The notes beneath the pieces are model-generated. The model saw nothing but the letters and a program-made list of their open reading frames with translations. It did not search any database and had not been told where the DNA came from. This document shows positions 43,204-58,642 of a stretch of 64,000 bases of DNA, one piece after another; the first letter of the stretch is position 1; the number at the start of each line of letters is the position of its first letter. This DNA is from Nanobdellota archaeon (GTDB lineage Archaea > Nanobdellota > Nanobdellia > Pacearchaeales > GW2011-AR1): contig JAHISS010000087.1 in assembly GCA_018817905.1 (NCBI GenBank), positions 985 to 64,984 on the forward strand, written 5' to 3'. Both the position numbers and the translations under genes were made by a program.

Positions 43204-43659
43204 TTGATGATTGTTGAGAAAAAAAGAGGGCTGTCTCCAGTTATAGCAACTGTTTTACTTGTTTCGATTGCTTTAGTTTTGGCAGTTATCATTTTTTTAT
43301 GGGCGAGAAGTTTTATTGCTGAAACTGTTTTGAAGGGTGGAGAGCGAGTTGAATTGATGTGCGAAGATGTTGGGTTTTTGGCGGAAGCATACGGTGAGCA
43401 GTTGCTCATAGAAAATATTGCGACTGTTCCGATTTATGGTGTTGAAATCAGGGTTCTTGGAAGCGGCGAAATAAGAGAAGTTGCACCGACAACGGGCGGG
43501 ACAATCGAGGCAGGGCAAACAATGAGCTTTGATCTTCCGGTTGGTATTTCTTCTGGAGAAACAATTATTGCTGTTCCGATTCTGCTCGGCGAAACAGATG
43601 AAGAACAGGTCCCATATATTTGCGACATTGATTATGGCGTGGAAGCTGTAGTGGGATGA
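43204..43659 (+). CDS. archaeal type IV pilin-like protein (class III signal peptide)
   Basis: MMIVEKKRGLSPVIATVLLVSIALVLAVIIF, with the KRG|LSPVIATVLL prepilin motif. Confidence 0.85.
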   Translation: MMIVEKKRGLSPVIATVLLVSIALVLAVIIFLWARSFIAETVLKGGERVELMCEDVGFLAEAYGEQLLIENIATVPIYGVEIRVLGSGEIREVAPTTGGTIEAGQTMSFDLPVGISSGETIIAVPILLGETDEEQVPYICDIDYGVEAVVG

Positions 43660-43663
43660 TGAA

Positions 43664-44212
43664 ATGAAAAAAAAAGGTCTGTCAACTATTGTTGCTACGA
43701 TTGCAGTTGTTTTGCTGACTTTGGCTGCTGCGGCGTTTATCGCTGGATTTATTGTTCCGCTTGTGAGAAACCAGCTGAATGAAGGAACAGAATGTCTTGG
43801 CTATGAAGATTATTTTACGTTTTATGAAGAGTTTGAGTATAATTGTTACAGACAGGGTGGATCGACCTGGCTTTACGGGATTTCTGTTCAAGCAGATTCG
43901 GTGAGAGAAGAAACTGCAGATGAAGTAGCAGGATTTAAACTTCAGTTTTTGAAAACAGGAGAATCAAAAAGTGTTGAGGTTGAAGATGAAATGCCGAAGA
44001 CAGATGAAATCAGAATGTTAAATTCTTCTGTGGCGAAGTTAGAAATTCCTAAGAGTGGGGAAGTAAGAACCTATGTTTATACCGGGAATGGACTTTTCGG
44101 AACAGTTAAAATAGCTCCCGTGTTAAAGTCAGGAAGAACTTGTGAAATAACTGATTCAATAGATATTGGAGGAATAGAATGCGCTCCAGGAGTAGATTTG
44201 GCGCTCACTTAA
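43664..44212 (+). CDS. archaeal type IV pilin-like protein
   Basis: MKKKGLSTIVATIAVVLLTLAAAAFIAGF is a class III signal peptide. Confidence 0.85.
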   Translation: MKKKGLSTIVATIAVVLLTLAAAAFIAGFIVPLVRNQLNEGTECLGYEDYFTFYEEFEYNCYRQGGSTWLYGISVQADSVREETADEVAGFKLQFLKTGESKSVEVEDEMPKTDEIRMLNSSVAKLEIPKSGEVRTYVYTGNGLFGTVKIAPVLKSGRTCEITDSIDIGGIECAPGVDLALT

Positions 44213-44503
44213 AATGAGCTACTAAAGGGGATGCACCAAAAAATAAAATGCCACCAAAAACAAACAAGCAAAAAAGAGATTTAATATTTAATCTTAGATT
44301 TATCAATCACAAAGTGAAGCTCCCAACCGTAAAATCAAAAAACAATCGTTATCAACAACGCACATTATTGGATATGATAATCTTTGGTGGGGCAGTAGCA
44401 TTTGCCCAACTGCAACAAGCGGAAGGAATCTCTTTTCAATTAAATTTAGGGGGCGACAATTCCTCTTTCGGTTTCAAAACCGAGTATCATTGGTGTTGAT
44501 GCG

Positions 44504-45040
44504 ATGGATAAAAAAAATGCCCAAGTTTGGATAGAGACTGTGATGTACACTTTGATTGGACTTGCTTTGATAGGCATTGTCCTGGCAATTGCAACTCCGA
44601 GAATAAACGAAGCAAAGGACAGGATTGCAGTTGAGCAGACAATTGAATCGTTAAATGTTTGGGATGAAAAAATCAGCGAGGTTTTGGACAGAGGTCCTGG
44701 AAACAACAGAAACATTCCTTCTTTTGTTATGAAACGGGGTGAGCTTTTTATCAACGGCGATACAGACACAATTGTTTTTATTTTAGACGAACTTGGAAAG
44801 CCATATTCAGAACCAGATATTGAAATAGAGTTCGGAGAAGTTGTTCTTGTTTCCAGACAAGAGGGAAAATCAAATTCTGTTGAAATGACTTTGAATTATC
44901 TTAACGTTACAAACTTAACTTATGACGGGGAAGACAATGTTAAAAAGTTCACTGCTGCTGCAACACCTTATGCGTTTTCTATAAAAAATCTTGGCGGAGT
45001 TAACATCAGCAATGTTGATATCGAAGAGAGCTCCAGATAG
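44504..45040 (+). CDS. pilin-like protein
   Basis: MDKKNAQVWIETVMYTLIGLALIGIVLAI. Short basic leader, Glu at +5 after A|Q, then a hydrophobic helix. Confidence 0.7.
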   Translation: MDKKNAQVWIETVMYTLIGLALIGIVLAIATPRINEAKDRIAVEQTIESLNVWDEKISEVLDRGPGNNRNIPSFVMKRGELFINGDTDTIVFILDELGKPYSEPDIEIEFGEVVLVSRQEGKSNSVEMTLNYLNVTNLTYDGEDNVKKFTAAATPYAFSIKNLGGVNISNVDIEESSR

Positions 45041-45070
45041 TTTTAAATAAATGTTTTCTTTAAAATCGAT

Positions 45071-46597
45071 ATGGCTGGCAAGATAAATCTAAATCCAGTA
45101 GTGCCGCCGCTTCCGCGGAATGAAGATAAAAAAAAGGTAGATGTGAGGTATATGCTGATTTCACCTTATGCTTCTGCGCACATTTACTGGAACAAGAAAG
45201 TAAATGAGTTGGTTTACGAACTTGAAGAGCCGATTCTGACAAAAGAAGAAGAGGAAGTGCTTGAAAGAGTTGAAAGCGCAATGCTTGAGTTGATTAATGT
45301 TAACGTTGCTATTGAAAAAACCCTTGAGGCAACAACGAATTATATAGATAAAACGGCGAGGTTACTGATTGATGAATTGAATATTGGGGTATCTTCTGAG
45401 AGTTATGATAAAATATTTTATTATCTGTTTAGGGATTTTATCGGACTGAATGAGATTGATCCATTGTTAAGGGATTATTTTATTGAAGATATAGAGTGCA
45501 ATGGAATTGATACGCCGTTATTTATCGTTCATAGGATGTATCGGAATCTTAGGACTAACCTTATTTTCAATGACTTTGACAAGCTTGCGAGTTTTATAGA
45601 AAAACTTGCGCAGCGCACAGGCAGGTATGTTTCTTACGCGCAGCCGCTGCTTGATGGAACACTGCCAGATGGTTCGAGAGTTAATGCTACATACACAAAA
45701 GATGTTTCTTCACGGGGACCTACTTTCACAATTAGAAAATTCACTAAAGTTCCATGGACTCCGACACAATTGATTTCGATGAACACGCTTTCCCCTGAAA
45801 TGCTGGCTTATTTCTGGATTTTGCTTGACAACAAAGCAAACATCTTGGTTACAGGAAGCACTTCTTCTGGAAAAACAACTTTGTTGAATGCGCTGGCTTT
45901 TTTTATCCCGCCTGAGGCGAGAGTTGTCAGTATTGAAGACACTCGAGAAATAAATTTACCGAGGGAAAACTGGCTGCCTTCGGTTGCAAGAACTTCTGTC
46001 GGCGTTGGAAAAATTGGCGAGGTTGATTTGTTTGAAATTTTGAAAAGCTCGTTCAGACAAAATCCAGATTATTTGATTGTGGGGGAAGTCAGAGGAAAAG
46101 AAGCGTTTGTTTTGTTTCAGGGAATGGCGAGCGGCCACACGTCCATCAGCACAATGCATTCTGACTCTGTGGACACTTTAATAAGGCGATTGCAGACTCC
46201 TCCAATAGATTTATCTCCAACCTTGGTAAATTCTTTAGATTGTGTTGTTGTTACAACGCACGCGGTAGCTAAAAAACAAGAAACCAGAAAAGTTAGAGAA
46301 ATCGTTGAGATTGTTAATGTTAACAAAGACGGAACAGCTTTGGTGAATACGCCGTTTAAGTGGGATCCTGCGAAAGATGTTTTTTACTCAAAAAAACAGA
46401 GCAAGGTTTTTGAAAAAATATCTACGCGAACTGGCACTCCTATTGAAAAATTGTATAAAGATTTAGCTACGAGGGCGAAATTGCTTTACGAGTTATACAA
46501 ACGAAAGATATTTGGATTTGATGAGGTTGGTTGGATTATTAATGAATTCCACAAAAACCCGGTTGGCGTTTTGAATAAATTTAATATTGCGGAGTGA
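45071..46597 (+). CDS. type II/IV secretion-family ATPase (ArlI/PilB-like)
   Basis: 508 aa. Walker A GSTSSGKTTLLNAL, EDTREI, Walker B/His box LIVGEVRGKEAFVLFQGMASGH. Confidence 0.9.
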   Translation: MAGKINLNPVVPPLPRNEDKKKVDVRYMLISPYASAHIYWNKKVNELVYELEEPILTKEEEEVLERVESAMLELINVNVAIEKTLEATTNYIDKTARLLIDELNIGVSSESYDKIFYYLFRDFIGLNEIDPLLRDYFIEDIECNGIDTPLFIVHRMYRNLRTNLIFNDFDKLASFIEKLAQRTGRYVSYAQPLLDGTLPDGSRVNATYTKDVSSRGPTFTIRKFTKVPWTPTQLISMNTLSPEMLAYFWILLDNKANILVTGSTSSGKTTLLNALAFFIPPEARVVSIEDTREINLPRENWLPSVARTSVGVGKIGEVDLFEILKSSFRQNPDYLIVGEVRGKEAFVLFQGMASGHTSISTMHSDSVDTLIRRLQTPPIDLSPTLVNSLDCVVVTTHAVAKKQETRKVREIVEIVNVNKDGTALVNTPFKWDPAKDVFYSKKQSKVFEKISTRTGTPIEKLYKDLATRAKLLYELYKRKIFGFDEVGWIINEFHKNPVGVLNKFNIAE

Positions 46598-46628
46598 TTG
46601 AAAACTATTTAAATCTTCTACTTCTTTT

Positions 46629-46799
46629 ATGTTGATGAAAAAAGAGAACATCGTAGTTGTAGCTCAGCTTTTGACAGCTATTAAGGACAACATTGAAAAA
46701 ATAGAAGAAGCTGAACGGGAAAAAGATGCTGAGAAACTTTCTTCTGGAAGGCAGGAGATTTTGAGTTTTCAAAAGAAAATCGGGGAGCTTTTGAAATGA
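46629..46799 (+). CDS. small coiled-coil protein (56 aa)
   Basis: Own translation MLMKKENIVVVAQLLTAIKDNIEKIEEAEREKDAEKLSSGRQEILSFQKKIGELLK. Stop overlaps (ATGA) the platform-gene start. Confidence 0.4.
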   Translation: MLMKKENIVVVAQLLTAIKDNIEKIEEAEREKDAEKLSSGRQEILSFQKKIGELLK

Positions 46800-48106
46800 T
46801 TGGCGAACTGAAAAAAAACATTGAAACAGAAATCGGAATGCTTCGGGAGATTTCTAATTATCAGCGCAAACTGGAATCTGCGACAGAAGAAGAGAAAGTT
46901 CTTTTGGAAGGGACGGTTAAGTCGCTGGTGGCTGGAATGAAAATAATTAATGATTCAGTTCCGAAAATGCTGCAGGATGTTTCTATCTCAAAAAAATTGC
47001 CTTCTCTTGGTCGGGGGAAAAAAGAAAAACAGAGATTTGAAAAAATTAATTTTAAGCGGGCGGGGTCAGATGTTGAGGTTGTTCTTAAGTCGGGGGACAA
47101 AGAAAGGTTTTTGAAGGAACTTGACATAAGCGAGCAGTTTGTGAAGAAACTTCGGAAAAAACAATTTGAAAAACAGGAGACATATGGAGAGTTTAAAGCG
47201 TCGCGTGGATACCTGAAACTTGCGAACAGTTTTTTTCTAAAAAGTGCTGGGAAGTCAATAAGAAAGGGTTATTTCAAAAGTCTTTCAGGGAGTTTGAGGA
47301 AGGCAAACATTGATATTTTGTTTGAATCCTATGTTGCACTAATCTATCTTTCTGTTTTGTTGTCTTTTATTGCGTCAATTTTCATCACAGTTGTTTTATT
47401 ATTTTTCAGCACTATGCCCATCTGGCCTTTTTTTGAAGTTAATGATGGCGGTTATCTTTTAAGAATTGGGAAAATCTTTTGGATACCAGTCGCTGTTCCG
47501 CTGCTAACTTTTTTAGGGCTTTACATTTACCCGCTGACTGAAAAAAAGTCTATTGGAAACAAAATAAATCAAGAACTGCCTTTTGCAGTGATTCATATGA
47601 GCGCGATATCTGGCTCTGGAATTGAACCTTCGGAAATATTCAGGATAATTGGACTGAATAAAGAATACCCTTATCTGAGAAGAGAGATTAGGAAAGTTCT
47701 GAACCAGATTAATCTTTATGGTTATGATTTGACTACTGCGCTTAGCAATGCGGCTAAAAGTTCTCCGAGCGAAAAATTGTCAGAGTTGTTTTCTGGTTTG
47801 TCGACTACGATAACTTCTGGCGCTGACCTTTCCGAGTTTTTCGAAAAAAGGGCGGAAACATTGCTTCTGGGTTATAGGATAGAACGGGAGAAATATACTC
47901 AGCTTGTTGAAACTTTTCTTGATATTTATATTAGCGTTGTCATCGCAGCCCCAATGATATTTTTGCTGCTGCTTGTGATGATGGCTGTTTCTGGGATGGG
48001 CGTTGCCTTGAGCTCGTTTCAGATAAGCGTCTTAGCTGTCCTCATCATAGCTGTCTTAAACATTGTTTTCCTGTTGTTTTTACAAATGAAACAACCGAGT
48101 TACTAA
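46796..48106 (+). CDS. pilus/archaellum platform protein, first half (T2SSF domain; ArlJ/TadC-like)
   Basis: 436 aa. Cytoplasmic coiled coil, then TMs and LPFAVIHMSAISGSGIEPSEIFRII...YDLTTALSNAAKSSPSEKLSELFSGL. Confidence 0.8.
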   Translation: MIGELKKNIETEIGMLREISNYQRKLESATEEEKVLLEGTVKSLVAGMKIINDSVPKMLQDVSISKKLPSLGRGKKEKQRFEKINFKRAGSDVEVVLKSGDKERFLKELDISEQFVKKLRKKQFEKQETYGEFKASRGYLKLANSFFLKSAGKSIRKGYFKSLSGSLRKANIDILFESYVALIYLSVLLSFIASIFITVVLLFFSTMPIWPFFEVNDGGYLLRIGKIFWIPVAVPLLTFLGLYIYPLTEKKSIGNKINQELPFAVIHMSAISGSGIEPSEIFRIIGLNKEYPYLRREIRKVLNQINLYGYDLTTALSNAAKSSPSEKLSELFSGLSTTITSGADLSEFFEKRAETLLLGYRIEREKYTQLVETFLDIYISVVIAAPMIFLLLLVMMAVSGMGVALSSFQISVLAVLIIAVLNIVFLLFLQMKQPSY

Positions 48107-48107
48107 A

Positions 48108-48479
48108 ATGAAAAATAAATTACAAAAGAAAATTTGTCAGGAATGGAAAAATATTATTTTTAATGCCCTATTTGCAGTTTTAACAATGCTGTTCGCTGTG
48201 CTATTTTACGAAAATATATTTTTAACAACGGCGGTGATTGGGGTTGTTAGTCTTGTTGGTTTAATTAAATGGAAATCTAAATTGACTTTGGTTATTTTTA
48301 TTTTTTCAGCGTTGTTAGGGACAATCGGCGAGATGATTGCTACAAATTATGGTGTTTGGGAATATTCGTTTGCTAATTTTGTTAATATCCCATTATGGCT
48401 ATTTTTAGTTTGGGGGAACGCTGGGGCTTTTATTTATCAAACTGCTTTAGAATTTAAAAGATTGGGAGTCAAAAAATAA
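48108..48479 (+). CDS. small polytopic membrane protein (123 aa)
   Basis: Four hydrophobic segments. Sits between the two platform halves with 1-nt spacers. No family recognised. Confidence 0.55.
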   Translation: MKNKLQKKICQEWKNIIFNALFAVLTMLFAVLFYENIFLTTAVIGVVSLVGLIKWKSKLTLVIFIFSALLGTIGEMIATNYGVWEYSFANFVNIPLWLFLVWGNAGAFIYQTALEFKRLGVKK

Positions 48480-48480
48480 A

Positions 48481-49341
48481 ATGGCGCTGAAAAAAATGCA
48501 CTGGTTTGGGATAATTGCAGGCGTAGTTATCGCGCTTTTTGATTTTGTATTCTTCTACAAAAATGAAAAGATGTTGTTTTTCCTTTTGGGAATCGGCATT
48601 GGAATTATAGCTTTGCCGTTTATTATCGGACTTAGCCTTGAGAACAAGAAAGAACACAAAGTTGATGATATGTTTTTAGAATTCACGAGGAATCTTGCAG
48701 AAAGCGTGGCAACTGGAACTCCGATAAGCAAAGGAGTAATCAACATGAGAAAAAAGAATTATGGGGTTTTGAATCCTCATGTCAATAAACTTGCAAACCA
48801 GATAGAGCTTGGAATTCCTGTTGACGAGGCGCTGCAAACTTTTGCGAAAGAGCTGGACAGCACTGTTGTTAAGCGGGCGATTGCCCTGATACGCGAAGCT
48901 GAAAAAGCTGGGGGAGATATTGACTATATTTTGGATTCAACAGCAAAGTCAATTTGTGAAGTTGAAAAGCTGAAGAAAGAAAGAAGGGCTGTGATTTATG
49001 GGCTGGTTGTTCAAGGTTATGTTATCTTTTTTATTTTTATCGGGATAATACTTATCATGGAATTCAAAATCATTCCGCTTACTGCTGGAGTCAGCACCTT
49101 CGGAGGTTTGGGCGGGGCAGGAGATTTGGGCTCTGGAGCAGCTGGAGTGGGAGAGATATCTCCTGAACAGTTTACTAAACCTTTTTTGTATCTTTTGCTG
49201 GCGCAGGGATTGTTTGTCGGGCTTGTAATCGGGAAGCTGACAGAAGGTTCGATAAAGAAAGGGCTGAAACATTCTTTTATCTTGATGATAACTGCTTTTC
49301 TTATTTCAACTGGGGCGCGGCTGTTTTTGAGTGGTGGGTGA
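48481..49341 (+). CDS. pilus/archaellum platform protein, second half (T2SSF domain; TadB/TadC-like)
   Basis: 286 aa. FLEFTRNLAESVATGTPISKGV...IELGIPVDEALQTFAKELDSTVVKRAIALIREAEKAGGD. Confidence 0.8.
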   Translation: MALKKMHWFGIIAGVVIALFDFVFFYKNEKMLFFLLGIGIGIIALPFIIGLSLENKKEHKVDDMFLEFTRNLAESVATGTPISKGVINMRKKNYGVLNPHVNKLANQIELGIPVDEALQTFAKELDSTVVKRAIALIREAEKAGGDIDYILDSTAKSICEVEKLKKERRAVIYGLVVQGYVIFFIFIGIILIMEFKIIPLTAGVSTFGGLGGAGDLGSGAAGVGEISPEQFTKPFLYLLLAQGLFVGLVIGKLTEGSIKKGLKHSFILMITAFLISTGARLFLSGG

Positions 49342-49488: not shown

Positions 49489-52128
49489 ATGAAAGGAAAA
49501 GTACTCATCTGTGCCCTTTTGGCATCATTAGTTTTACTTAATTTAGCAAGTGCGGAAGCAAATGAGATTCCTGTCTCTACATGTCAAGTCTTGGATATGG
49601 GGAATGCTGTTTATGTGTTGCAGAAGGATATTGTAACTTCAGAAACTTGTTTTATTATTGGAGCAGACTTTGTAACTCTTGATTTAAGGGGATACACTGT
49701 AACTGGAGCAAACACTAATGTTGGAGTCGATAATAATGGATATAACTCTATGGTTCTCAAAAACGGAAGGATAACAAACTTCAATAAAGGGATTTATATC
49801 AGAGATGGTTCAAATAATCAAATAATCAACAATAACTTTGACTTCAGCGATGATGGAGGTATTTTCTTAAGAAATTCTAATAACAATTTAATGAGTGATA
49901 ATATCCTGAACTCGAATGAATTTGGCATCTTTATTGAAGGTGGTTCAAATAATATTATCAGAGATAGCCAAATCTTTAATAGCGGGTATCAAGGAATTCG
50001 TTTTAATTATGGTAGCACAAATAACGAGATAACTGATACGATTATCCAAAATAGTGTGCGCCATGATTTCTTTATCGCGACTAATTCAGTAACACAATGT
50101 AATCATCAGTTTACAAATGTTATTGGGACAGGAAATAAGCCAATTTTGTTCTTCAAAGATTCTGTAGAAATAAGTGACCTGGATGTAAGCGAAATGATAT
50201 TATGTAACGCAGATAATTCTGTAATAAGTGGTGTGACTCTAAACAATGAAAATCAGCAAAATAATGGTCTGCTCTTGTTATGGACAGATAATACAATATT
50301 ATCTCACATGTTAGTAAACAACTCAAGGGAAGGGATTTACATGGAAGACGGGAATTATAATACCATAATCAATTCTGAATTAACTCATAATCGGCAAGGG
50401 CTTGAGATTTATCGGGGGGATGGAAATTCCATAAGTGATAATCATATTAGCGATAATTCCAACGACGGTCTCACATTAGATAATGCAATCAATAGCATCG
50501 TAGAAAATAATTATTTAGAAAACAACGGCAGAGCTGGGGTGGATATTTCTGGAGGAGCATTGAATAATATCATTAGAGGTAACTTCATTAAAAACAACGA
50601 GGAGGTTGGAATCGATGTAGGGGATAGTAACAATCTATTTTTTAATAATTTTATTAGTAATCAGCTTAATGTTGAGATTGATGTTATAGATGATGATGAG
50701 GAAGAGATAATTAATGCTTGGAATACTGATTTACAGAATGGATTAAATATTGTTGGTGGAAATTTTTTAGGCGGAAACTACTGGGCAAATCCATTTGGAA
50801 CAGGTTTCTCAGAAACCTGTGGGGATTCTGATGAAGATGGAATATGTGATGAGCCTTATGTTTTAGAAGAGAGTAATATAGATTATTTGCCTTTAACTTC
50901 TATAGCCCCCAAAGAACCATCACTTTCAATAACAAAAACTCAAGAATTAACCTTAACACAAAATGGAATATTATCAATCATCAATACTGGAGATATGCTC
51001 CTAACCAATGTAACTCTTTCCGCAATAGGAGATTTTGAAATTGATTTTTCCCATAACAACTTCAATTTACCTGTACAGCCAGGAGCCATAGCACTAACAC
51101 AAGTTTCATTAATTAATTTAGATGATTTAGAATTTGGTCAAAACATAGTAACAATTACTGCCCAATCAGATGAAGGAGCACAAGACATAACAACATTCAC
51201 ACTAAAAGAAACATTCTGCAAAAATGGCGAAATAGGAGCTCTTAGAATAAATGACGTCAGCATAGAAAATGCAGACGGAGAAGACGACAAATGGATTCTT
51301 TGGGATTATGTTGAGATTGACATTGAAATAAAAAACGAGGGAGATGAAAAAATAAAGGATGTTATTGTTGAGCTTGGCTTATTTGATTCTTCTGGCCGGA
51401 ATGTTGCAGATGACTTAGAATTCTTCGGTGGAGATGAAGAGGTTGAGATTGGTAGTTTGAATGATGGAGAAAGAGAGACCGCCAGTTTTAAGTTTAAAGT
51501 TCCTGCTGATTTTGAGGACGGAGACTATAAATTGACTGTTAAGGCATATAGTGATGAGTTAGGGGAAGAGAACGAATGTGTTGATAGCGCAAGAGATTTA
51601 GATACTGACTTTTTCCAAGAAATCGAAATTGAACGAGAAGACGATGAAAGCAGATTTATTATTTTTGATAATGTTGTGATTGAACCATCTGAAACTTCAT
51701 GCGGAGACAGCGTGACATTGACAGCAGATATTTACAACATTGGTGAAGATGACCAGGATAGAGTTAGAGTTAATTTGGTTAACAATGAATTGGGGCTTGA
51801 CGAGTTTGTGGAGATAATGGGTGATTTTGATGTCGGAGATGAGGAAAGTGTTAGTTTTGATTTTGTGATTCCTAATGTTGCTAAGAATAAAATTTATCAG
51901 TTACGTTTATCTACAGATTATGATTTTAAGCGTAACGCTTACAGTGAATCTTCTGATGAAGAATTAATAGAATTAAGCATAACTGCTTGCGGTGTTACGC
52001 CAATTGTTGCAGTGGATGACAACGGACAAAGCGGAGATATTATTTACTTAGGTGGAAGAGCTGACGAAGAATCTGAAAAAGGTTTCTTTAGTAATCTTTG
52101 GGAAGAGATTTCTTCTTGGTTTGGTTGA
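49489..52128 (+). CDS. secreted parallel beta-helix (PbH1/NosD-like) repeat protein with acidic CARDB-like C-terminal modules
   Basis: 879 aa with a signal peptide. About 15 tandem ~22-aa repeats (GIYIRDGSNNQIINNNF, GIFLRNSNNNLMSDNIL, GIFIEGGSNNIIRDSQI ...). Followed by Asp/Glu-rich beta-sandwich-like segments. Confidence 0.8.
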   Translation: MKGKVLICALLASLVLLNLASAEANEIPVSTCQVLDMGNAVYVLQKDIVTSETCFIIGADFVTLDLRGYTVTGANTNVGVDNNGYNSMVLKNGRITNFNKGIYIRDGSNNQIINNNFDFSDDGGIFLRNSNNNLMSDNILNSNEFGIFIEGGSNNIIRDSQIFNSGYQGIRFNYGSTNNEITDTIIQNSVRHDFFIATNSVTQCNHQFTNVIGTGNKPILFFKDSVEISDLDVSEMILCNADNSVISGVTLNNENQQNNGLLLLWTDNTILSHMLVNNSREGIYMEDGNYNTIINSELTHNRQGLEIYRGDGNSISDNHISDNSNDGLTLDNAINSIVENNYLENNGRAGVDISGGALNNIIRGNFIKNNEEVGIDVGDSNNLFFNNFISNQLNVEIDVIDDDEEEIINAWNTDLQNGLNIVGGNFLGGNYWANPFGTGFSETCGDSDEDGICDEPYVLEESNIDYLPLTSIAPKEPSLSITKTQELTLTQNGILSIINTGDMLLTNVTLSAIGDFEIDFSHNNFNLPVQPGAIALTQVSLINLDDLEFGQNIVTITAQSDEGAQDITTFTLKETFCKNGEIGALRINDVSIENADGEDDKWILWDYVEIDIEIKNEGDEKIKDVIVELGLFDSSGRNVADDLEFFGGDEEVEIGSLNDGERETASFKFKVPADFEDGDYKLTVKAYSDELGEENECVDSARDLDTDFFQEIEIEREDDESRFIIFDNVVIEPSETSCGDSVTLTADIYNIGEDDQDRVRVNLVNNELGLDEFVEIMGDFDVGDEESVSFDFVIPNVAKNKIYQLRLSTDYDFKRNAYSESSDEELIELSITACGVTPIVAVDDNGQSGDIIYLGGRADEESEKGFFSNLWEEISSWFG

Positions 52129-52150: not shown

Positions 52151-52906
52151 TTAGCTTCCCTTCTCCACAAAATAAAAAACCTCGTTTTCGCTTTTGAATG
52201 TTTTGAAAGGGAAGTTTAATTTTTTCAAAAGAACTTCAAACCAAATCCTCTTCGGAAAATTCATCGGCTTGCCGGATAACTTTCTTGTTGAAAAGCTGAC
52301 TATCAATCTGGTGCAGGGAACTGTTGTGAGAATTTTTCTGGCGTGTTTTTTTTCTATTACGTCGAGAACTTTGAAAAGAAGGCACAGGTCTGCACGGGGA
52401 AGATTTTTTTTAAGATTCCTTAAATCGCAAATGAAAGTTTCCCCTTTTATTTTGTTTTTTTTGAAGAATTTTTTAACAAGGGAGAGTTCGTCTTGCTTTA
52501 TGTCTGAGGCGTGATATTTTATTTTTGGATTTGCTAAGGCAAGGGGGTTTAATCCGCAGCCCAGGTCTAAGATTGAAGCGGGTTTGAGAGAGGCTACGAT
52601 TTTTTTAAGTTCAGGATAAAACTCTAATCTTTCTGCTGTTGAAGAATGTGTCTTGAGAATCTTTTGGAAATCCCCTTCTTTGAAAAGTTTTTCTCTGTTT
52701 TTCAAACTTTTTTGAAATCTTCCGGTGAGGATTCTCAATTCAGCTCTTAAATCTTTGACGATTATTTTTTTTTGTTTTTGTGAAAGGTTGGCTAATTCTA
52801 TTCTGTATTTGTTAAGATAATTATTTAGAGCGGTTTTCACAACTGAATCGACCAAGCCGGACAGTTCTTTTTTTTGTTTTATTGTTTTGATTAGTTCATT
52901 TTTCAT
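52151..52906 (-). CDS. Arm/Rmt (FmrO)-family 16S rRNA (guanine1405-N7)-methyltransferase homologue
   Basis: 251 aa. LKTHSSTAERL, ILDLGCGLNPLAL, YHASDI, LLFKVLDVIE, IVSFSTRKLSGKPMNFPKRIWFE, NEVFYFVEK. These align by eye with the conserved blocks of ArmA/RmtB (HxSTxER, LDxxCGxNPLA, FKxLPxLE, SFPxxSLxGxxKGM..WFE). Confidence 0.75.
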   Translation of the reverse strand: MKNELIKTIKQKKELSGLVDSVVKTALNNYLNKYRIELANLSQKQKKIIVKDLRAELRILTGRFQKSLKNREKLFKEGDFQKILKTHSSTAERLEFYPELKKIVASLKPASILDLGCGLNPLALANPKIKYHASDIKQDELSLVKKFFKKNKIKGETFICDLRNLKKNLPRADLCLLFKVLDVIEKKHARKILTTVPCTRLIVSFSTRKLSGKPMNFPKRIWFEVLLKKLNFPFKTFKSENEVFYFVEKGS

Positions 52907-52955: not shown

Positions 52956-53684
52956 ATGAGAAGCTGCGGATTGTTTGGAAAAAAAGGCGTAAGCCATGTT
53001 GAAATTATTCTGGCATTTGTGATTTTTATCGCTGCTGTGGGATTTGCGCTGTATTTTTTTAATCCTGGAGATAGTGATAGGTTGGTGGGAACTTCTTTGA
53101 CTTATGCGTTTCGTGAAATAAAACAGAACGCAAGTGTGGGCGTTGAGACATTTTCAGTTGTGATTGACGATGTTGCGGTTGTTACTGGGGGAAGTGATAC
53201 GATTGCGATGAATTTCCCAGGTGTTGAAGGAAAAACAAGAGTTGAAACTTATGACGGAGAGGTTTTGAACTCTTCACATGTAGCGGACATTGTTAATGTT
53301 AACACTGATAATTGGAACGGGATAGATTTTCTTTTTGTAAAGTTTGGTGAAGAATTTGTTGAAACTGCTGGTTTGTCTGGAACTGAGAATGCGACTTATT
53401 ATGAAATTGGTTCTTCAAATTTAAAAGAAGTGATTTCTGAAAAAAGGATTTTAAATCTCAAGGATGCTTATGATGCAGATTATTATTCCTTGCGAGGGGA
53501 GGATAATTTCAATCTTCCTGACAGGGTGAATTTTGGTTTTTCTCTGGTTTTTGATGATGGTTCTATCGAGGCAGAAAGAGAAATTCCGGCAAGTCTTGAA
53601 GTTTTTTCAGACACAGAAAGAGTTGAGGTTCTTAGAGATGGAGGAGAGATTGTGTTTGCTGATTTGATGGTTAAACTGTGGTAA
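52956..53684 (+). CDS. pilin-like protein (class III signal peptide)
   Basis: ATG at 52956. MRSCGLFGKKGVSHVEIILAFVIFIAAVGFALYFF, with KKG|VSHVE and Glu at +5. Confidence 0.7.
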   Translation: MRSCGLFGKKGVSHVEIILAFVIFIAAVGFALYFFNPGDSDRLVGTSLTYAFREIKQNASVGVETFSVVIDDVAVVTGGSDTIAMNFPGVEGKTRVETYDGEVLNSSHVADIVNVNTDNWNGIDFLFVKFGEEFVETAGLSGTENATYYEIGSSNLKEVISEKRILNLKDAYDADYYSLRGEDNFNLPDRVNFGFSLVFDDGSIEAEREIPASLEVFSDTERVEVLRDGGEIVFADLMVKLW

Positions 53685-53688
53685 TGAA

Positions 53689-54114
53689 ATGATGAACAAA
53701 AAAGGTTTTATGCGCGTGGTTGAAGCGACAATTGCTATTTTGATTATCTTCGGAGTTTTGTTAGTGATTGTTCCAAAAAAAACAAGTAGTGAAGAGAAAG
53801 ATTTTAGTGAGATTTTACCAGGACTTTTGGACGAGTTGGCGCAAAATCTGACATTGCGCGAAGAGCTAATCTCTGGAGCTAAAGAAGATGGTTTTCTTGA
53901 GGGAGAGATAGAAACTTTGCTTGGGCAGAGGATTAAAAATCCTTCTTTAAGTTATTCTGTTGAGATTTGTGAGCTGGATGAAATTTGTTATCTTGAGCCG
54001 TATCCTGCTGATGTTGAAGAAGACATTTATGCGGCAGAGAGAGTTGTAAGTGCGAGTATAAAGAACTTGGATTTCTCTCCGAAGAAAATAAAAATATTCT
54101 TATGGCAGAATTGA
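53689..54114 (+). CDS. pilin-like protein (class III signal peptide)
   Basis: MMNKKGFMRVVEATIAILIIFGVLLVIV, with the KKG|FMRVVEA motif. Confidence 0.7.
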   Translation: MMNKKGFMRVVEATIAILIIFGVLLVIVPKKTSSEEKDFSEILPGLLDELAQNLTLREELISGAKEDGFLEGEIETLLGQRIKNPSLSYSVEICELDEICYLEPYPADVEEDIYAAERVVSASIKNLDFSPKKIKIFLWQN

Positions 54115-54338: not shown

Positions 54339-55904
54339 ATGAAGAGGATATTGAGTTGTATTTTACTTGTAAGTGTTTTGTTTTGCATTCTTACGTTGGG
54401 AATTGTTTCTGCTGTAATAACTTGCGTTAATGGAGAAGACAGAATGTTTAGAATAAGCAGTGTTACAAATGCTCATGCGGAAAAATGGGTTCAAACTAAT
54501 TATGGTGAAGAGATTTGTTACGAGGATTATTTCCAAGGATATGGGAGTGGCGTGAGGGGCTGCGCTGGAGGAAATAAAATCTTGGGAATTTCTGGAGATA
54601 CAAATGCTCATGTTGAAATTCCTACCCAAAGTAATTATGAATCTGTTTGTTATGGGGACTTGACTTGTAAAGCAGTTCAAGGACAATGCAATGATACTGA
54701 CTTAGGAGTTGGAACAGATTACAGTGTGATTGTTTCGTTGGCTGATGAAGAAAACAGCCATGTTTCACTTGCTTATGTTTATCCTTACAGAATTTGTTGT
54801 AAGGGTCCGCATTCTCCGATTTGTAATTATGACGGTGTTTGTGATTATTTATCTCGCGGGGAAACAGCGCAAAATTGTCCTGACGATTGTGTTTGCGGGA
54901 ACGGACAGATTGACGCGGGAGAAGTTTGCGATATTGGAGACGACCCCGAAGATCCAAGTGATGATGTATTCACAATTCCAGGGTTTGATTGTACTGATCT
55001 CGATTACAGCAGTGGACCACTTTATTGTGCTGAAGGATGCATGAGTTATGATGTAAGTTCGTGTGAGGTAGAATGTGATGATGGAATTCTTAGTCCTGGG
55101 GAAACATGTGAACCTTCTCTTGATCCTGATGGAGCGGATTGTAATGATGCTGAAGGTTATCCTGGAACGCGGCAATGTAGTAATGTAACTTGCAATTGGG
55201 TTTGTGATACAGGTTTGTTTTGCGGAGATACAATTTTCACTTCTCCCCCAGAAGAATGCGAAATTGACGATGAAGAAAGTTGCGAAGAGCATGATTTTGA
55301 AAGCGGCCTAGAAGTAACTTGTGACGAAGATACGTGCAAGTGGGACACAAGCCAATGCGTTGGAAAATTAACTTTTTGTGAAAAACATGAACCATTTACT
55401 TACGAACATCCAGACGAAAGTGGAAATTATTTTTCTCCGATGAGGTGCGTTGAATACAATCTTGTTTATCCTGGTTCTAGTAAAGCAGAAGAAAGGGAAG
55501 AACTTTGTCTTGGCGACTGTGTCGCTGGCGCTTCTGTTCCTGTGAACAATGGCTATGCTGGGACAAATCTTTTTAGCTCTGGATGTGCTTGGGATTCTGA
55601 CGGAACAGATGGCGGGCAGTGTTACTTTTATTTTGAAAGAAACGAAGGAGATAGATGTAGGACAGATTTTGTTTCTGAAGCAGACTGCGAGCCAGATGAT
55701 TCATTTAGAGAAGTGACAATTAACGCGAGCGCTGTCGGCGGAGGAACTTGGACTTGTGATGCTGGCTGTGGTGAAGATACTTGCACTTCGCAAATCTATT
55801 GTCCAACAGTTATACGTCTCCCTTTCTTTGGTTGGGTGGCTTTTGTTTCTGGAATTTTCTTAATTGGAATTATTTATATGTTTAATTTTGCAAGAAAAAG
55901 ATGA
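54339..55904 (+). CDS. Cys-rich cell-surface protein with C-terminal TM anchor
   Basis: Track ORF trimmed to MKRILSCILLVSVLFCILTLGIVSA (signal peptide). Repeated SxxTNAHxExxxQxNY motif, CVCGNGQIDAGEVCD module, more than 50 Cys, C-terminal TM. Confidence 0.75.
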   Translation: MKRILSCILLVSVLFCILTLGIVSAVITCVNGEDRMFRISSVTNAHAEKWVQTNYGEEICYEDYFQGYGSGVRGCAGGNKILGISGDTNAHVEIPTQSNYESVCYGDLTCKAVQGQCNDTDLGVGTDYSVIVSLADEENSHVSLAYVYPYRICCKGPHSPICNYDGVCDYLSRGETAQNCPDDCVCGNGQIDAGEVCDIGDDPEDPSDDVFTIPGFDCTDLDYSSGPLYCAEGCMSYDVSSCEVECDDGILSPGETCEPSLDPDGADCNDAEGYPGTRQCSNVTCNWVCDTGLFCGDTIFTSPPEECEIDDEESCEEHDFESGLEVTCDEDTCKWDTSQCVGKLTFCEKHEPFTYEHPDESGNYFSPMRCVEYNLVYPGSSKAEEREELCLGDCVAGASVPVNNGYAGTNLFSSGCAWDSDGTDGGQCYFYFERNEGDRCRTDFVSEADCEPDDSFREVTINASAVGGGTWTCDAGCGEDTCTSQIYCPTVIRLPFFGWVAFVSGIFLIGIIYMFNFARKR

Positions 55905-58642
55905 TAAAAAAGAGGATGTTAATTGTGGGGCTTGTTTTGATGATTGGCTTAGCAAGCGCGAGTTTTGACGTTGATGATAGTTCTTCTGTGATTGAAAAGA
56001 ATTATTACGAAGGGGATTTTGTCAGAGGTGTTTTGAATATGAGTTTTTCTGAACAAGATAATGAGGATTTTACAAGCAACTTTAAGGGAGGAATTGATAT
56101 AGTCGAACTTCTTAGAGGAATGAGTTATAATTCAAGCAGAGATTTTATTTGTGATCCTGTGAATTGCGAAAGTGATTATTATGTTAATTCTGGCACAGGT
56201 TCTGAAATTCATGGTTTAAATATAGGAGTCAAGAAAGTTTATGGTTTTCAAATAAAGGGAGGAGAAATTACTGGAATTGTAAATAACGGGCTAAAGTTTA
56301 ATGTTAATGTTACATCTCCTCCAATTTGCGGGGATAACCAAGTGTTTGTTGATTTGTTTGATGATGGGACGCTTGACTTTTACAATACTCAATCTGTCAG
56401 CGGCGGGGCGTGCATCTATGAAGAAAAAGATTTTGGCTGTTTTGACGAAGATGAAGTAACTGGAACTGTTTCAATTGAAGGTGAACCTTATTGTGAAAAG
56501 ATTAAACTGCGTCCTGCACCTGGTTACAGAATCGGAGCAGTGATAAGCGGCAGTAGCAGCGGGCAGTTAAGATTTTCAATTTATTCAACTGATTGGGACA
56601 GTGCTTTGGTTTATGGAACTGCGACAAATCCTTTGGCGGCGCCGTGGGTTGAGCCGTGGGTTGATGTTGATTATTCTTTTACAGAAGATACTGAAGTGTT
56701 TGTCTGTGTTGATGCTCCTTCGGGAAGTGAAGGGAAATATTCAATCAGAATCAATGAGGATAGCGATGAAATGTGCGGGGTGAATGTTGGGGAAGGAACA
56801 TCTGACACTGAGTTTGAAGTGGATTATGAAATTTTTGCTTTGCCGCGCCCTTATGGTTGGCTTAAAGAATTTGAATTTAATGCAGATTCTTATGCGAAGC
56901 TAACTAAAAGAAAACTTATAGATGATTTAGAAGATTATCTTGAAACAAAATATGACAATGATTGTTCTGGAGATGACGGATGCATTATCCCTTTCAGCAT
57001 TTTGGTGAGGAATTCTACAACCTCTCCGATTTTGCATTCCCCAACGCTGAAATATAAAAAGAAGAGTGCTGGCAGTCCAACAATTTACCAGTTGTTTGAG
57101 CTTAGTAAACGCCTTCCAAAAGTTAGTTCTGATTATCTTCTTTTGGACGTTGAAAAAATGGAATTCAGAGTTCCTGATTCAGATGGAGGATACAACTTTA
57201 AGTTAAAACTTGACGGGAGAAATGTGATTGAAGAAGAAGTGGATGTTGATATTGGATTTGTTTTCAATGTTGCGCCGCGGTTTGCGTTTATTGGGAGAAG
57301 CACTTCGTTTATTGCCTCTGGCTCAACCGGTGTGAATGGTTCGACCTGGGATTTCGGAGACGGAAGTTCTGTTGTTTATTCTAACAGCAATAGCGCGCAG
57401 CATCTTTATTCTGAAGCAGGGAGTTATGTTATCAAAACTACTTTAAAAAAATCTTCTGGCGCGACTTCTACGCGAAGGTTTAGAGTCATTGTTGGCGACG
57501 CGAAAACTTCGGCAAATTTAACACTTACAGATTACAAGTCGAGAATTTTGAACATTCAGTCTGGAATAAACTCCCTGCCAGAATGGGCGAGGCCGAGTGT
57601 TGAAACTGCTTTGAATTTTAACACGATGAAGGCAGCTGTTGCCAGCAAGAAAAATTCTTTTGAATTGCTAGGAACAAATGCTGCGGAATCAGCTTACGTT
57701 GAGATTGTCAATAGTTTGATGAATCTCTGGGTTCCGTATTCGGTTTTTGTCAGTGCAAGCGGAGAGCTTCCTGCGCTGGTTGGATTTAATAATCTTAATG
57801 TTGAACACATAAAATCAATTTCCGGCGAAGGCGCGGGGGTTGATAGTTCTGAAATGCGCCAGAGCATTGCTGATTGGATGGAACGAAATTATGAGCTTTC
57901 TGTGGCCTTTGAAACAATTTCTGCTGATGGAGATTTACAAACAACTGAGTTGTTGAAGAAGTATAAAATAAAAATCACGCAAAAACCAAACGCTGAAGAA
58001 GATTATTCTTATTTGGTAATAAATCATCCGCGGAGCGGCATAGTTGCAAAATCTTCTGCAAGTGGTCTTGAAGAAACAGTTTCTGGCGACGGAGCTTATG
58101 TTGGAATTGATTACAGCAGTCCATTGCAAGAAATAGAATTTTTGATTGTTGGTGCTGACGCTCCTGATGTTGAGGCATTGGGTGCGTATGTTTCTCCGAT
58201 TGTCAGCGCCTTGGGGGTAAGTGAACTGCCAATTAGGCCAAATTGGTGGGAAGATGAGGGGGGAAATTTCAGTTGGGGGAAATTTCTCATTGGAATGTTG
58301 ATTCTTTTAATTGTAACTCTTGCCGCATATATTCTTCTCCAGATGTGGTATAAAAAACATTATGAAAACCATTTATTCAAAGACCCGACCCATCTTTACA
58401 ACTTAATTAATTTCATTTACAATTCAAGAAGGGCTGGGCTGAAAGACAGCGTTATCAAAAGCCAGCTCAAAGAGAGAAAATGGAAAGGCGAGCAAATAGA
58501 TTATGCGTTTAAGAAAATAGACGGAAAGCGAACCGGAATGTGGGAGATACCTTTGTTCAAGTTTGTTGAAAACAGAAAAGTCAGGGAGGAAATTGAGAAA
58601 AAGCAAGGAATGCCAATAGACGCAAGATTTATTAAAAGATAA
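55901..58642 (+). CDS. giant surface protein with PKD domain, C-terminal TM and basic cytoplasmic tail
   Basis: 913 aa with a signal peptide. PKD-like WDFGDGSSVVYSNSNSAQHLYSEAGSYVIKTTL. TM FLIGMLILLIVTLAAYILL. ATGA overlap with the upstream gene. Confidence 0.75.
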   Translation: MIKKRMLIVGLVLMIGLASASFDVDDSSSVIEKNYYEGDFVRGVLNMSFSEQDNEDFTSNFKGGIDIVELLRGMSYNSSRDFICDPVNCESDYYVNSGTGSEIHGLNIGVKKVYGFQIKGGEITGIVNNGLKFNVNVTSPPICGDNQVFVDLFDDGTLDFYNTQSVSGGACIYEEKDFGCFDEDEVTGTVSIEGEPYCEKIKLRPAPGYRIGAVISGSSSGQLRFSIYSTDWDSALVYGTATNPLAAPWVEPWVDVDYSFTEDTEVFVCVDAPSGSEGKYSIRINEDSDEMCGVNVGEGTSDTEFEVDYEIFALPRPYGWLKEFEFNADSYAKLTKRKLIDDLEDYLETKYDNDCSGDDGCIIPFSILVRNSTTSPILHSPTLKYKKKSAGSPTIYQLFELSKRLPKVSSDYLLLDVEKMEFRVPDSDGGYNFKLKLDGRNVIEEEVDVDIGFVFNVAPRFAFIGRSTSFIASGSTGVNGSTWDFGDGSSVVYSNSNSAQHLYSEAGSYVIKTTLKKSSGATSTRRFRVIVGDAKTSANLTLTDYKSRILNIQSGINSLPEWARPSVETALNFNTMKAAVASKKNSFELLGTNAAESAYVEIVNSLMNLWVPYSVFVSASGELPALVGFNNLNVEHIKSISGEGAGVDSSEMRQSIADWMERNYELSVAFETISADGDLQTTELLKKYKIKITQKPNAEEDYSYLVINHPRSGIVAKSSASGLEETVSGDGAYVGIDYSSPLQEIEFLIVGADAPDVEALGAYVSPIVSALGVSELPIRPNWWEDEGGNFSWGKFLIGMLILLIVTLAAYILLQMWYKKHYENHLFKDPTHLYNLINFIYNSRRAGLKDSVIKSQLKERKWKGEQIDYAFKKIDGKRTGMWEIPLFKFVENRKVREEIEKKQGMPIDARFIKR

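Follow-up and report, generated by a model that had tools for sequence, protein, structure and literature searches.

The locus at positions 43204-58642 of the analyzed DNA is very probably a lineage-typical archaeal type IV pilus cluster of a Pacearchaeota/Woesearchaeota-type DPANN archaeon that secondarily carries two insertions, and it most likely constitutes an ordinary representative of the known archaeal pili, namely an adhesive type IV pilus. The whole analyzed stretch, here called the window, comprises 64,000 nt of a Nanobdellota archaeon (contig JAHISS010000087.1, assembly GCA_018817905.1). A previous sequence-only reading had listed five pilin-like genes, an ATPase, a micro-ORF, two platform genes, a 123-aa gene and three large proteins for this locus; all of these ORFs were found on the plus strand with correct coordinates. 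Its interpretation as archaeal type IV pilus machinery was borne out by the presence of a secretion ATPase, of T2SSF platform genes beside it and of five proteins with class III signal peptides. The genes of the locus are as follows:

43204-43659, plus strand: pilin 1, PilA-like, candidate major pilin, class III signal peptide KRG|LSPVIATVLL
43664-44212, plus strand: pilin 2, PilA-like, KKG|LSTIVATI
44504-45040, plus strand: pilin-like protein 3, candidate minor pilin, KKNA|QVWIETV with Glu at +5
45071-46597, plus strand: assembly ATPase of the PilB/FlaI/GspE2 type, 508 aa, PF00437 (9e-30)
46629-46799, plus strand: micro-protein, 56 aa, charged, probably helical and cytoplasmic; its stop overlaps the platform-N start by 4 nt (ATGA)
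46796-48106, plus strand: platform N-half (platform-N), TadC-like, one T2SSF domain (PF00482, 2.5e-16, residues 267-392)
48108-48479, plus strand: four-helix membrane protein, 123 aa, Insig/DUF817-like, between the two platform genes
48481-49341, plus strand: platform C-half (platform-C), TadB-like, one T2SSF domain (PF00482, 8.5e-14, residues 68-193)
49489-52128, plus strand: NosD-like beta-helix protein with CARDB, 879 aa (NosD 4.8e-35, Beta_helix 1.8e-33, CARDB 2.4e-9)
52151-52906, minus strand: FmrO-like rRNA methyltransferase (PF07091, 1.5e-16)
52956-53684 (alternative start 52947), plus strand: pilin-like protein, 242 aa, candidate minor pilin, KKG|VSHVE with Glu at +5
53689-54114, plus strand: pilin-like protein, 141 aa, candidate minor pilin, KKG|FMRVVEA
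54339-55904, plus strand: Cys-rich surface protein, 521 aa, start ATG 54339, 44 Cys (8.4% of residues)
55901-58642, plus strand: PKD-domain surface protein, 913 aa (PKD 7.8e-8)

The arrangement seen in the window is identical on nine contigs from independent assemblies and is therefore not an artefact. For comparison, three full-length related loci (L011, L012 and the JGI locus) and a fourth one, L013, which extends only 1.3 kb past platform-C, were used. All three full-length loci share a conserved core consisting of three pilin-like genes, the ATPase, a 53-56-aa micro-ORF, platform-N and platform-C, followed by the FmrO methyltransferase on the opposite strand, two further pilin-like genes, the Cys-rich gene and the gene of the PKD protein of about 900 aa, after which housekeeping genes follow; neither the 123-aa gene nor the NosD-like gene occurs there. 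The position and orientation of the FmrO gene are likewise kept in all three, and the synteny takes in further unrelated genes, namely those of TrxR, OapABC and the CCA enzyme. The FmrO-like methyltransferase is syntenic with, and functionally unrelated to, the pilus.

The class III signal peptides reported at five gene starts are present, and their motifs are kept in the orthologues. For pilin 1, whose start is probably ATG 43207, the assignment is based on a match to the TIGR02537 archaellin/pilin N-terminal domain above cutoff (2.2e-9, 36.6 bits, cutoff 20), next to a weak UpsA match and 18 bits for Pilin_N; its orthologues in L011 and L012 (45-63% identity) have the same motif. For the other four proteins it is based on motifs kept in orthologues. 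Pilin 2 matched TIGR02537 weakly (16 bits), and its orthologues, at 51-60% identity, have KRG|LSPIVATV. The N-terminus [GA]|Q[IV]WIETV.YTLIG of pilin-like protein 3 is kept in L011, L012 and L013 (54-66% identity), its signal peptide being non-canonical since N takes the place of K/R at -2. Orthologues of the 242-aa protein (40-63% identity) show K[KR]G|[MI]SHVE, and those of the 141-aa protein (42-61% identity) an identical N-terminus, so that across the orthologues the canonical N-termini read K[KR]G|LS.., K[KR]G|[VMI]SHVE and KKG|FMRVVE. Family searches with the pilin-like proteins at 44504, 52956 and 53689 yielded no family match. The two PilA-like pilins are likely the major subunits, while the motif (a G|xxxxE-type N-terminus) and position of the three further pilin-like proteins point to likely roles as minor or priming subunits.

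The ATPase, correctly recognized beforehand as ArlI/PilB-type, is 81-87% identical to its orthologues and aligns over its whole length with A. fulgidus GspE (2OAP) at 381 bits, compared with 286 bits for FlaI and 151 bits for CpaF. Judged from these bit scores, its nearest relatives are A. fulgidus GspE and FlaI, and not the CpaF of Tad systems. The FlaI model was its best NCBIfam match (398 bits, 5.8e-119), and the best matches of both platform halves were ArlJ models, as would be expected if the locus encoded an archaellum or an archaellum-derived motility apparatus. However, these scores stay below the equivalog cutoffs (398 versus 550 for the ATPase; 93 versus 550 for the platform, with ArlJ model cutoffs of 400-570), neither an archaellin domain nor ArlF/G/H/X/C/D/E could be detected in the locus, and the platform is split, unlike ArlJ. 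A motility apparatus is accordingly regarded as extremely improbable.

PF00482 occurs once in each platform gene, as had been described, and comparison with HMMs identified them as N-half and C-half, collinear with the ArlJ model: platform-N covers model positions 44-248 and platform-C positions 266-470 of 555. Similarly, in a fused 701-aa haloarchaeal platform, whose gene follows its own ATPase gene, platform-N aligns to residues 52-297 and platform-C to residues 421-696. Platform-N consists of a cytoplasmic extension of about 170 aa, TM segments and the single T2SSF domain; platform-C has two TM segments, the T2SSF domain and further TM segments, and its orthologues (70-78% identity) directly follow platform-N. 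The platform-N family comprises at least 1135 clusters, of which the best 120 matches are all 400-445 aa long with a single T2SSF domain, and among the 50%-identity representatives listed that reach the C-terminal part of the query, 150 of 150 end with it. A frameshifted single gene, named earlier as a possible cause of the split, is ruled out by these single-domain, same-ending homologues together with the identical layout on nine contigs.

The preceding micro-ORF is predicted as a gene on independent contigs too and has equally placed orthologues of 53-54 aa (65-72% identity) in L011, L012, L013 and the JGI locus; family searches with the 56-aa protein gave no match.

A split platform is usual in this lineage, and the arrangement is already known from archaea. 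Archaeal clades 1, 2 and 4B commonly have two tadC-like genes (Makarova 2016), platform fission into two single-T2SSF genes has been reported from Epd-like and Tad systems (Denise 2019), and a DPANN island with TadC and TadB has already been drawn (Makarova 2019). In light of Makarova 2016 and Denise 2019, it is an overgeneralization that an archaeal platform normally combines the two repeats in a single polypeptide, and as the split is found lineage-wide, it does not make the locus a novel variant, as had been proposed. Since it is already documented, knowledge of type IV filaments in general remains unchanged.

Two adjacent single-T2SSF platform genes are also what the Epd pilus of Methanococcus maripaludis and bacterial Tad/Flp systems (TadB/TadC) possess, an arrangement interpreted as gene fission (Denise 2019). 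The locus might hence be a member of the Epd-like/Tad (T4c) lineage, derived from the same ancient fission as EpdJ/EpdK and TadB/TadC; genes matching the N and C halves are the defining trait of that lineage (Denise 2019), and the adhesion function expected here would be shared with Epd and Tad/Flp pili. The ATPase, however, resembles afGspE and FlaI far more than CpaF/TadA (TadA model 136 bits, cutoff 373), which also speaks against the label Tad-like given before. Furthermore, a domain search of the locus genes found no TadZ/FlaH-like second ATPase, secretin or EppA-type peptidase, and the pilin-like proteins, at 141-242 aa, are not the short Flp-like subunits of Tad. In the tad operon the order is tadA-tadB-tadC, with the C-like half first, whereas here the ATPase is followed by the N-half and then the C-half, collinear with fused platforms. 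Given that two tadC-like genes also occur in several other archaeal clades (Makarova 2016), descent from the Epd-like/Tad fission appears rather improbable.

A close counterpart to the lineage-typical pilus cluster is found in the euryarchaeal PilA-type pili (clade 2 of Makarova 2016, with PilB3/PilC3 of Haloferax volcanii; possibly subclade 4F). These likewise combine a GspE2/FlaI-like ATPase with one or two adjacent tadC-like genes and the same PilA-type class III pilin N-terminus; further shared traits are a FlaFind-type minor pilin of larger size and an S-layer-like protein anchored by a C-terminal TM segment, and in subclade 4F a coiled-coil component is located inside the cell. Both clade 2 and 4F were reported to include nanoarchaeal ATPases (Makarova 2016), the Archaeoglobus GspE that is the nearest solved relative of the ATPase is only suggestive of such a placement, and the locus has the corresponding PilA N-terminus, two platform genes, and Cys-rich and PKD proteins with C-terminal TM segments. 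It differs in that the pilins are encoded together with the ATPase and the platform, whereas the PilA pilins of H. volcanii are encoded in trans, in the N-terminal extension of platform-N, and in the micro-ORF, the Cys-rich protein and the tail-bearing PKD protein, which match no described family. The "dark matter" island with type IV pilus genes from DPANN archaea (Fig. 2A of Makarova, Wolf and Koonin 2019), compared by its description, likewise contains a secretion ATPase, TadC, TadB and surface proteins, with unannotated signal-peptide proteins read as divergent pilins. The 123-aa and NosD insertions, by contrast, are peculiar to the window's species.

The first of these insertions, the 123-aa four-TM gene, is indeed flanked by 1-nt spacers, reading TAA-A-ATG on both sides; in relatives without it, the platform-N/platform-C junction reads TAA-G-ATG or TGATG. 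The gene might in principle encode a true new accessory platform subunit in this species: it is tightly coupled to both platform halves, it is retained in two species (76% identical), and its product is a membrane protein like those of its neighbors. A check of its conservation in homologous loci, however, showed that the junction lacks it in three of three full-length loci; it lies between the platform halves only in the window's species and one sister species, the members of the window and L013 forming one clade. Elsewhere, the family is found between or beside POR subunit genes (about 20 loci), between or beside PheRS subunit genes (about 10 loci) and in other, unrelated operons. The fold appears Insig-like and has no relation to type IV pilus parts, and DUF817 is matched by four of 37 family members (best E-value 6.5e-6). 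From mycobacterial MvINS (PDB 4xu4), with about 190 aa and six helices, the protein differs by its 123 aa, its four helices and a sequence identity of about 12%, and its genomic position is not fixed. An accessory subunit is thus hardly to be expected, and the 123-aa gene is an unrelated hitch-hiker and not a pilus component. It provides a small concrete case for single-gene movement in extremely compact genomes.

The three large proteins described downstream (879-aa NosD-like, 521-aa Cys-rich and 913-aa PKD) are all present. The NosD-like protein is of the secreted kind, carrying a Sec-type signal but lacking a C-terminal TM segment. Its gene was found neither in L011, L012 and the JGI locus nor in the 1.3 kb after platform-C of L013, and the 3′ ends of platform-C and FmrO overlap each other in L012 and the JGI locus. 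The NosD-like gene is a species-specific insertion that separates platform-C from the convergent FmrO gene.

The Cys-rich protein, with an N-terminal Sec signal and a C-terminal TM anchor, evolves fast: its positional counterparts are 412-745 aa long and 26-38% identical, and family searches gave no match. The PKD protein, which occupies this position in each of the three full-length related loci, has a Sec signal, a chain of beta-sandwich domains, one TM helix near the C-terminus and a cytoplasmic tail of about 100 aa. In its AF2 model (pLDDT 83.5) the TM helix spans residues 792-825, and Foldseek matched the protein solely to PKD/Ig-like domains. Fourteen full-length homologues besides the window's own (873-934 aa) form with it an alignment of 15 rows, in which invariant columns are concentrated in the cytoplasmic tail, for which family searches gave no match. 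Both proteins are C-terminally anchored envelope proteins of an S-layer-like or adhesin-like kind.

As the pilus machinery adjoins these anchored surface proteins, an attachment role is reasonable, and the locus probably serves attachment to surfaces or host cells; this part of the proposal of a candidate attachment apparatus coupled to adhesins stands. The coupling itself is only inferred from synteny, and since this synteny also spans TrxR, FmrO, OapABC and the CCA enzyme, adjacency argues only weakly for a joint action of the pilus with the Cys-rich and PKD proteins. Alternatively, the machinery could mainly serve DNA uptake, or surface-protein display or secretion in the manner of a bindosome or pseudopilus. 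Such functions would suit a DPANN cell dependent on external nucleotides and nutrients, DNA uptake and secretion are among the known functions to which type IV filaments have diversified (Denise 2019), pilin-like and competence genes co-occur in ultra-small archaea according to the literature, and three of the pilin-like proteins have a bacterial-style G|xxxxE N-terminus. Against this, ComEC, DprA, nucleases and substrate-binding proteins are not encoded in the locus, and PilA-like pilins together with anchored surface proteins fit adhesive PilA-type systems. A main function in uptake, display or secretion is accordingly considered unlikely. For the main reading there is literature precedent in two tadC-like genes and S-layer-like partner proteins (Makarova 2016), in DPANN type IV pilus islands (Makarova 2019) and in host attachment.

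While the gene identities are established here, the joint action of the products is deduced from established knowledge of type IV filaments. The class III signal peptides would be cut by a prepilin peptidase encoded elsewhere. A hexameric GspE2/FlaI-like ATPase would dock on a two-polypeptide platform made of ArlJ/PilC-type N-half and C-half, whose genes are presumably translationally coupled, and the cytoplasmic micro-protein may join this complex. Pilins would then be lifted from the membrane into a filament, with the PilA-like ones as likely major and the G|xxxxE ones as likely minor or priming subunits, and this filament would most likely mediate adhesion to surfaces or host cells. The promoterless 123-aa gene was probably inserted ORF-precisely at the platform-N/platform-C junction, and the NosD-like gene would be a secondary insertion into the platform-C/FmrO interval.

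A further-reaching joint reading is possible, though we regard it as doubtful. It holds that the GspE2/FlaI-associated platform may have split separately, and collinearly, from that of Epd/Tad; that the micro-protein, the platform-N extension and the protein of about 900 aa with its most-conserved tail may, as lineage-specific parts, build a trans-envelope host-attachment organelle; and that the promoterless 123-aa gene may be a "nomadic ORF", repeatedly lodged ORF-precisely between two subunit genes of one complex. The sites named for the latter are POR alpha/beta, PheRS alpha/beta and platform N/C. If true, it would point to an undescribed type of single-gene relocation in ultra-compact genomes.

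DPANN archaea spend their lives attached to hosts, with pili as foremost candidates for establishing this contact. With the species-specific insertions set apart, the conserved core of the Pacearchaeota/Woesearchaeota-type pilus locus is now defined and gives a clean target list for cryo-ET, proteomics and heterologous expression.

Prepilin peptidases are often encoded in trans. In agreement with the earlier statement that the window lacks one, no A24 family peptidase (PibD/FlaK/EppA) was found among its ORFs with at least three predicted TM segments, i.e., SecY, an EMC3/YidC-like protein, a P-type ATPase, an HMA protein and one small unmatched ORF; the scan left out 18395-19054, an overlap artefact across ribosomal-protein genes of the other strand. 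Two features of the locus had been omitted in the sequence-only reading, namely the minus-strand FmrO gene, which divides the locus into two transcription units, and a non-coding spacer of 291 bp at 44213-44503.

Reading of the open reading frames and domain assignment confirmed all genes that the sequence-only reading had placed at 43.2-58.6 kb, where they make up a type IV pilus-like locus.

Genes of the type IV pilus-like locus (window positions)
43204, 43664 and 44504, plus strand: three small pilin-like genes, pilins 1 to 3 (ORF reading)
45071, plus strand: T2SSE ATPase, 508 aa (domain search)
46629, plus strand: micro-ORF, 56 aa, its stop overlapping the start of the next gene
46796-48106, plus strand: platform-N, 436 aa, N-terminal half of an ArlJ/PilC-type platform, one T2SSF domain
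48108-48479, plus strand: 123-aa membrane protein, Insig/DUF817-like
48481-49341, plus strand: platform-C, 286 aa, C-terminal half of the platform, one T2SSF domain
3′ of platform-C, plus strand: NosD/beta-helix/CARDB protein, 879 aa (domain search)
52151-52906, minus strand: FmrO-like methyltransferase, between the NosD-like gene and the pilin-like gene at 52956
52956 and 53689, plus strand: two further pilin-like genes, after FmrO
from ATG 54339, plus strand: Cys-rich protein, 521 aa, 44 Cys counted
after the Cys-rich protein, plus strand: PKD protein (domain search)

The claim that no prepilin peptidase lies in the window was likewise borne out when all window ORFs with at least three predicted transmembrane (TM) segments were examined; these encode SecY, an EMC3/YidC-like protein, a P-type ATPase, an HMA protein and a 99-aa ORF without a match. 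The ORF at 18395-19054 also has this many TM segments but was rejected as spurious, lying over ribosomal-protein genes of the opposite strand. Neither Rfam nor tRNA searches found anything in the window, and a promoter/terminator scan gave counts near those of shuffled controls, its consensus being bacterial and uninformative for an archaeon. The G+C content of the window is low (about 0.35-0.40). Segments identical to it occur in the MAG GCA_018815165.1 (NCBI label 'Nanoarchaeota archaeon') and in several other assemblies; among named relatives, Candidatus Pacearchaeota and Woesearchaeota MAGs come closest.

Gene content was read in three orthologous loci, namely a 160-kb JGI contig, L011 (from a Pacearchaeota MAG) and L012. 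All three share the order TrxR, three pilin-like genes, ATPase, micro-ORF, platform-N and platform-C, continued by FmrO on the minus strand, pilin-like proteins of 234-263 aa and 137-214 aa, a variable protein of 412-745 aa, a PKD protein of about 900 aa, an OapA-like GTPase, OapB, OapC and a CCA-adding enzyme. The ATPase orthologues are 81-87% identical, and those of the micro-ORF (53-54 aa, 65-72% identical) keep a 4-nt overlap. In these loci platform-N and platform-C are directly adjacent, with the junction TAA-G-ATG or TGATG, and the 3′ ends of platform-C and FmrO overlap in L012 and the JGI locus, at the place where the window carries the NosD gene. The 123-aa gene and the NosD-like gene are missing from all three; both are therefore secondary insertions in the window and accidents of this species. 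L011 contains toxin-antitoxin-like insertions of its own, a MazE/PIN pair upstream of pilin 1 (4740-5337) and a small-ORF/PIN pair between ATPase and micro-ORF (9002-9686); insertions are thus tolerated at more than one junction of the locus. In the window, 291 bp between pilin 2 and pilin 3 (44213-44503) hold no credible gene and show no similarity to the sequences compared in this analysis, while the two genes abut or overlap in L011 and L012. The FmrO-like methyltransferase, of the 16S rRNA G1405 type, is retained on the opposite strand inside the locus in all three full-length relatives. Only about 50 bp separate its start from that of the pilin-like gene which follows, a space that has to hold both diverging promoters.

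The sequence-only reading had taken the locus, with its platform divided between two genes, for a Tad-like or novel variant. A frameshift or assembly error as the cause of the division is ruled out by independent contigs and by homologue lengths: the same gene arrangement is found on nine contigs from independent assemblies, and the best 120 platform-N matches measure 400-445 aa and have one PF00482 domain each, the exception being a 370-aa fragment on a 1.3-kb contig. Homologues of platform-N fall into at least 1135 clusters. A search against 1.84 billion 50%-identity representatives matched 1773 proteins; among the 150 listed, which extend down to about 31% identity, all that reach the C-terminal part of platform-N stop at the end of the query, even where they carry much longer N-terminal extensions. 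The halves are distantly related to each other (23% identity over 78 residues, E = 0.001), and in a profile search platform-N covered positions 44-248 and platform-C positions 266-470 of the ArlJ model. Searching plasmids for annotated TadB/TadC with both halves by tblastn yielded only one spurious and one weak haloarchaeal match. The latter is a fused 701-aa Salinibaculum platform, encoded by a single gene following its ATPase gene, in which residues 52-297 match platform-N and residues 421-696 platform-C. A PDB sequence search with both halves gave no useful relative (best E-values 0.52 and 0.015). These comparisons show a gene fission fixed across a large DPANN family. Such an arrangement is not unusual among archaea and has already been described: two tadC-like genes occur in clade 1 (Methanococci/Epd), in many clade 2 euryarchaeal loci and in Thermoproteales 4B (Makarova et al., 2016), Epd-like and Tad platforms consist of two single-T2SSF genes that arose by fission (Denise et al., 2019), and TadC and TadB appear together in a DPANN type IV pilus island drawn by Makarova et al. 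(2019). Since two-gene platforms are thus reported in several archaeal clades, the rule that archaeal ArlJ/PilC normally carries both T2SSF repeats in one polypeptide is too broad (Makarova et al., 2016, 2019; Denise et al., 2019).

The 123-aa gene between the two halves belongs to a family of 37 clusters (50-76% identity). Its flanking genes were classified in 15 loci from GTDB species genomes and 76 from a metagenome scan, and it has no fixed home (window 48108-48479; L007-L010, L013-L103).

Gene neighbourhoods of the 123-aa gene
POR alpha/gamma, 123-aa gene, POR beta, or beside one POR gene: about 20 loci, including the most divergent members
PheRS alpha, 123-aa gene, PheRS beta, or beside one PheRS gene: about 10 loci, both PheRS genes on the contig in six
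after PheRS beta: L061/L062, two contigs, probably one locus
platform-N, 123-aa gene, platform-C: this species and one sister species (L013/L028, 76% identical)
ROK, 123-aa gene, GHMP kinase: L015/L032
methyltransferase, 123-aa gene, permease: L008/L009, L047, L076
NUDIX gene before it: L019/L055, L022, L023
Oxidored_q6 after it: L020, L052, L078
PIN after it: L021/L060, L048/L049

The junctions around the gene mostly measure -4 to +3 nt, and the moved unit is therefore essentially a bare ORF; in the window it comprises the ORF and one base, which leaves no room for a promoter or recombination site. The proposal that the gene is part of the pilus does not hold, given that it lacks a counterpart in three orthologous loci and is found in unrelated operons elsewhere; judged by its neighbourhoods, it is a small membrane gene riding inside operons rather than a pilus component. 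Three ideas address its frequent placement between subunit genes of one complex. Being promoterless, it may survive only inside transcribed, translationally coupled operons; POR may be its ancestral home and the other positions rare moves; or some recombination process favouring stop-start junctions may place it. In a neighbour-joining tree the window and L013 form one clade, the protein being too short for reliable relocation counts. Its AlphaFold model is a confident four-helix structure (pLDDT 94). DUF817, matched weakly by four of the 37 family members, is a domain for which no functional information was found in the literature.

Over its full length the ATPase aligned with A. fulgidus GspE (2OAP) at 381 bits, compared with 286 bits for Sulfolobus FlaI and only 151 bits for the Tad ATPase CpaF, and it stayed below the cutoffs of both NCBIfam models (FlaI 398 against 550, TadA 136 against 373). 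Together with the domain searches, which found neither archaellins nor Arl accessory genes in the locus, the sub-cutoff scores indicate that the system is not an archaellum and argue against the Tad-like variant suggested before. Pilins 1 and 2 have a canonical archaeal PilA-type N-terminus. The remaining conserved N-termini read [GA]/QxWIE in pilin 3, G/xSHVE in the 242-aa protein and G/FMRVVE in the 141-aa protein (slash, predicted cleavage site). Three of the five pilin-like proteins (44504, 52956, 53689) hence carry a Glu at +5 or +6 past this site, kept in orthologues, and these N-termini are closer to the bacterial G/FxxxE prepilin motif than to typical archaeal pilins.

Pfam and PDB searches returned no match for the minor pilins, the micro-ORF, the platform-N extension or the Cys-rich protein. 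The latter carries a Sec signal, is anchored at its C-terminus and is fast-evolving (26-38% identity to its counterparts). S-layer-like proteins of this type, in which conserved cysteines are combined with a C-terminal TM segment, typically accompany type IV pilus genes in archaea (Makarova et al., 2016). For the PKD protein, 14 other full-length homologues were found (27-50% identity). Its model (pLDDT 83.5) shows a beta-sandwich chain, a helical region, a TM helix (792-825) and a helical cytoplasmic tail; Foldseek against the PDB gave generic PKD/Ig-like domain matches and none that was global. Across the 15 aligned sequences, the tail of about 100 aa (58346-58639; residues 816-913) is the most conserved part of this roughly 900-aa protein, which implies a putative conserved intracellular partner. 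The tail contains the invariant motif K..GKRTGM.EIP and matched neither Pfam nor the PDB. Two further large proteins, encoded about 6-9 kb before the pilus genes (34047-36173, 708 aa; 36346-38076, 576 aa), match no Pfam family; each begins with a signal sequence and ends in a TM segment, and they are probably additional envelope proteins.

The evidence best supports reading the locus as an adhesive archaeal type IV pilus. Its five prepilins would be processed by a peptidase encoded in trans, and the ATPase hexamer would act on the two-piece platform, perhaps with the micro-protein, so as to form a fibre from PilA-like subunits with the three G/xxxxE proteins as minor subunits. While the gene identities come from the present analysis, this presumed assembly logic is taken from established knowledge of type IV filaments, and we infer a possible role in adhesion or host contact from DPANN biology. 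Coupling of the Cys-rich and PKD proteins to the pilus would be the weakest step, because the synteny also takes in the unrelated TrxR, FmrO, OapABC and CCA-adding enzyme. The observations of the sequence-only reading thus stand; its interpretation is only partly supported, as the split platform occurs throughout the lineage, had been described before and so is not novel. Although uncharacterised, the locus belongs to a known kind and is an ordinary example of it, in which only the roaming Insig-like ORF and the conserved PKD cytoplasmic tail might repay further work.

Directly after the PKD gene, 58657-61458 encodes an OapA-like GTPase, OapB (PF09846), OapC (PF09845) and the CCA-adding enzyme; these genes follow one another in the same way in L011, L012 and the JGI locus. 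As Oap proteins are 'origin-associated', there may be a replication origin close by. Beside a PCNA gene (31495-32307), a single 526-aa ORF (32297-33877) carries domains of both the small and the large primase subunit and is thus a candidate PriS-PriL fusion; a similar primase/PCNA pairing lies upstream of the pilus locus in L011. A metal-handling cluster at 22896-27492 comprises a membrane-anchored MarR/DUF7343 regulator, an HMA-domain membrane protein, an FtrD-like protein and a P-type ATPase, and a set resembling it is present in L007, one of the loci carrying the 123-aa gene.
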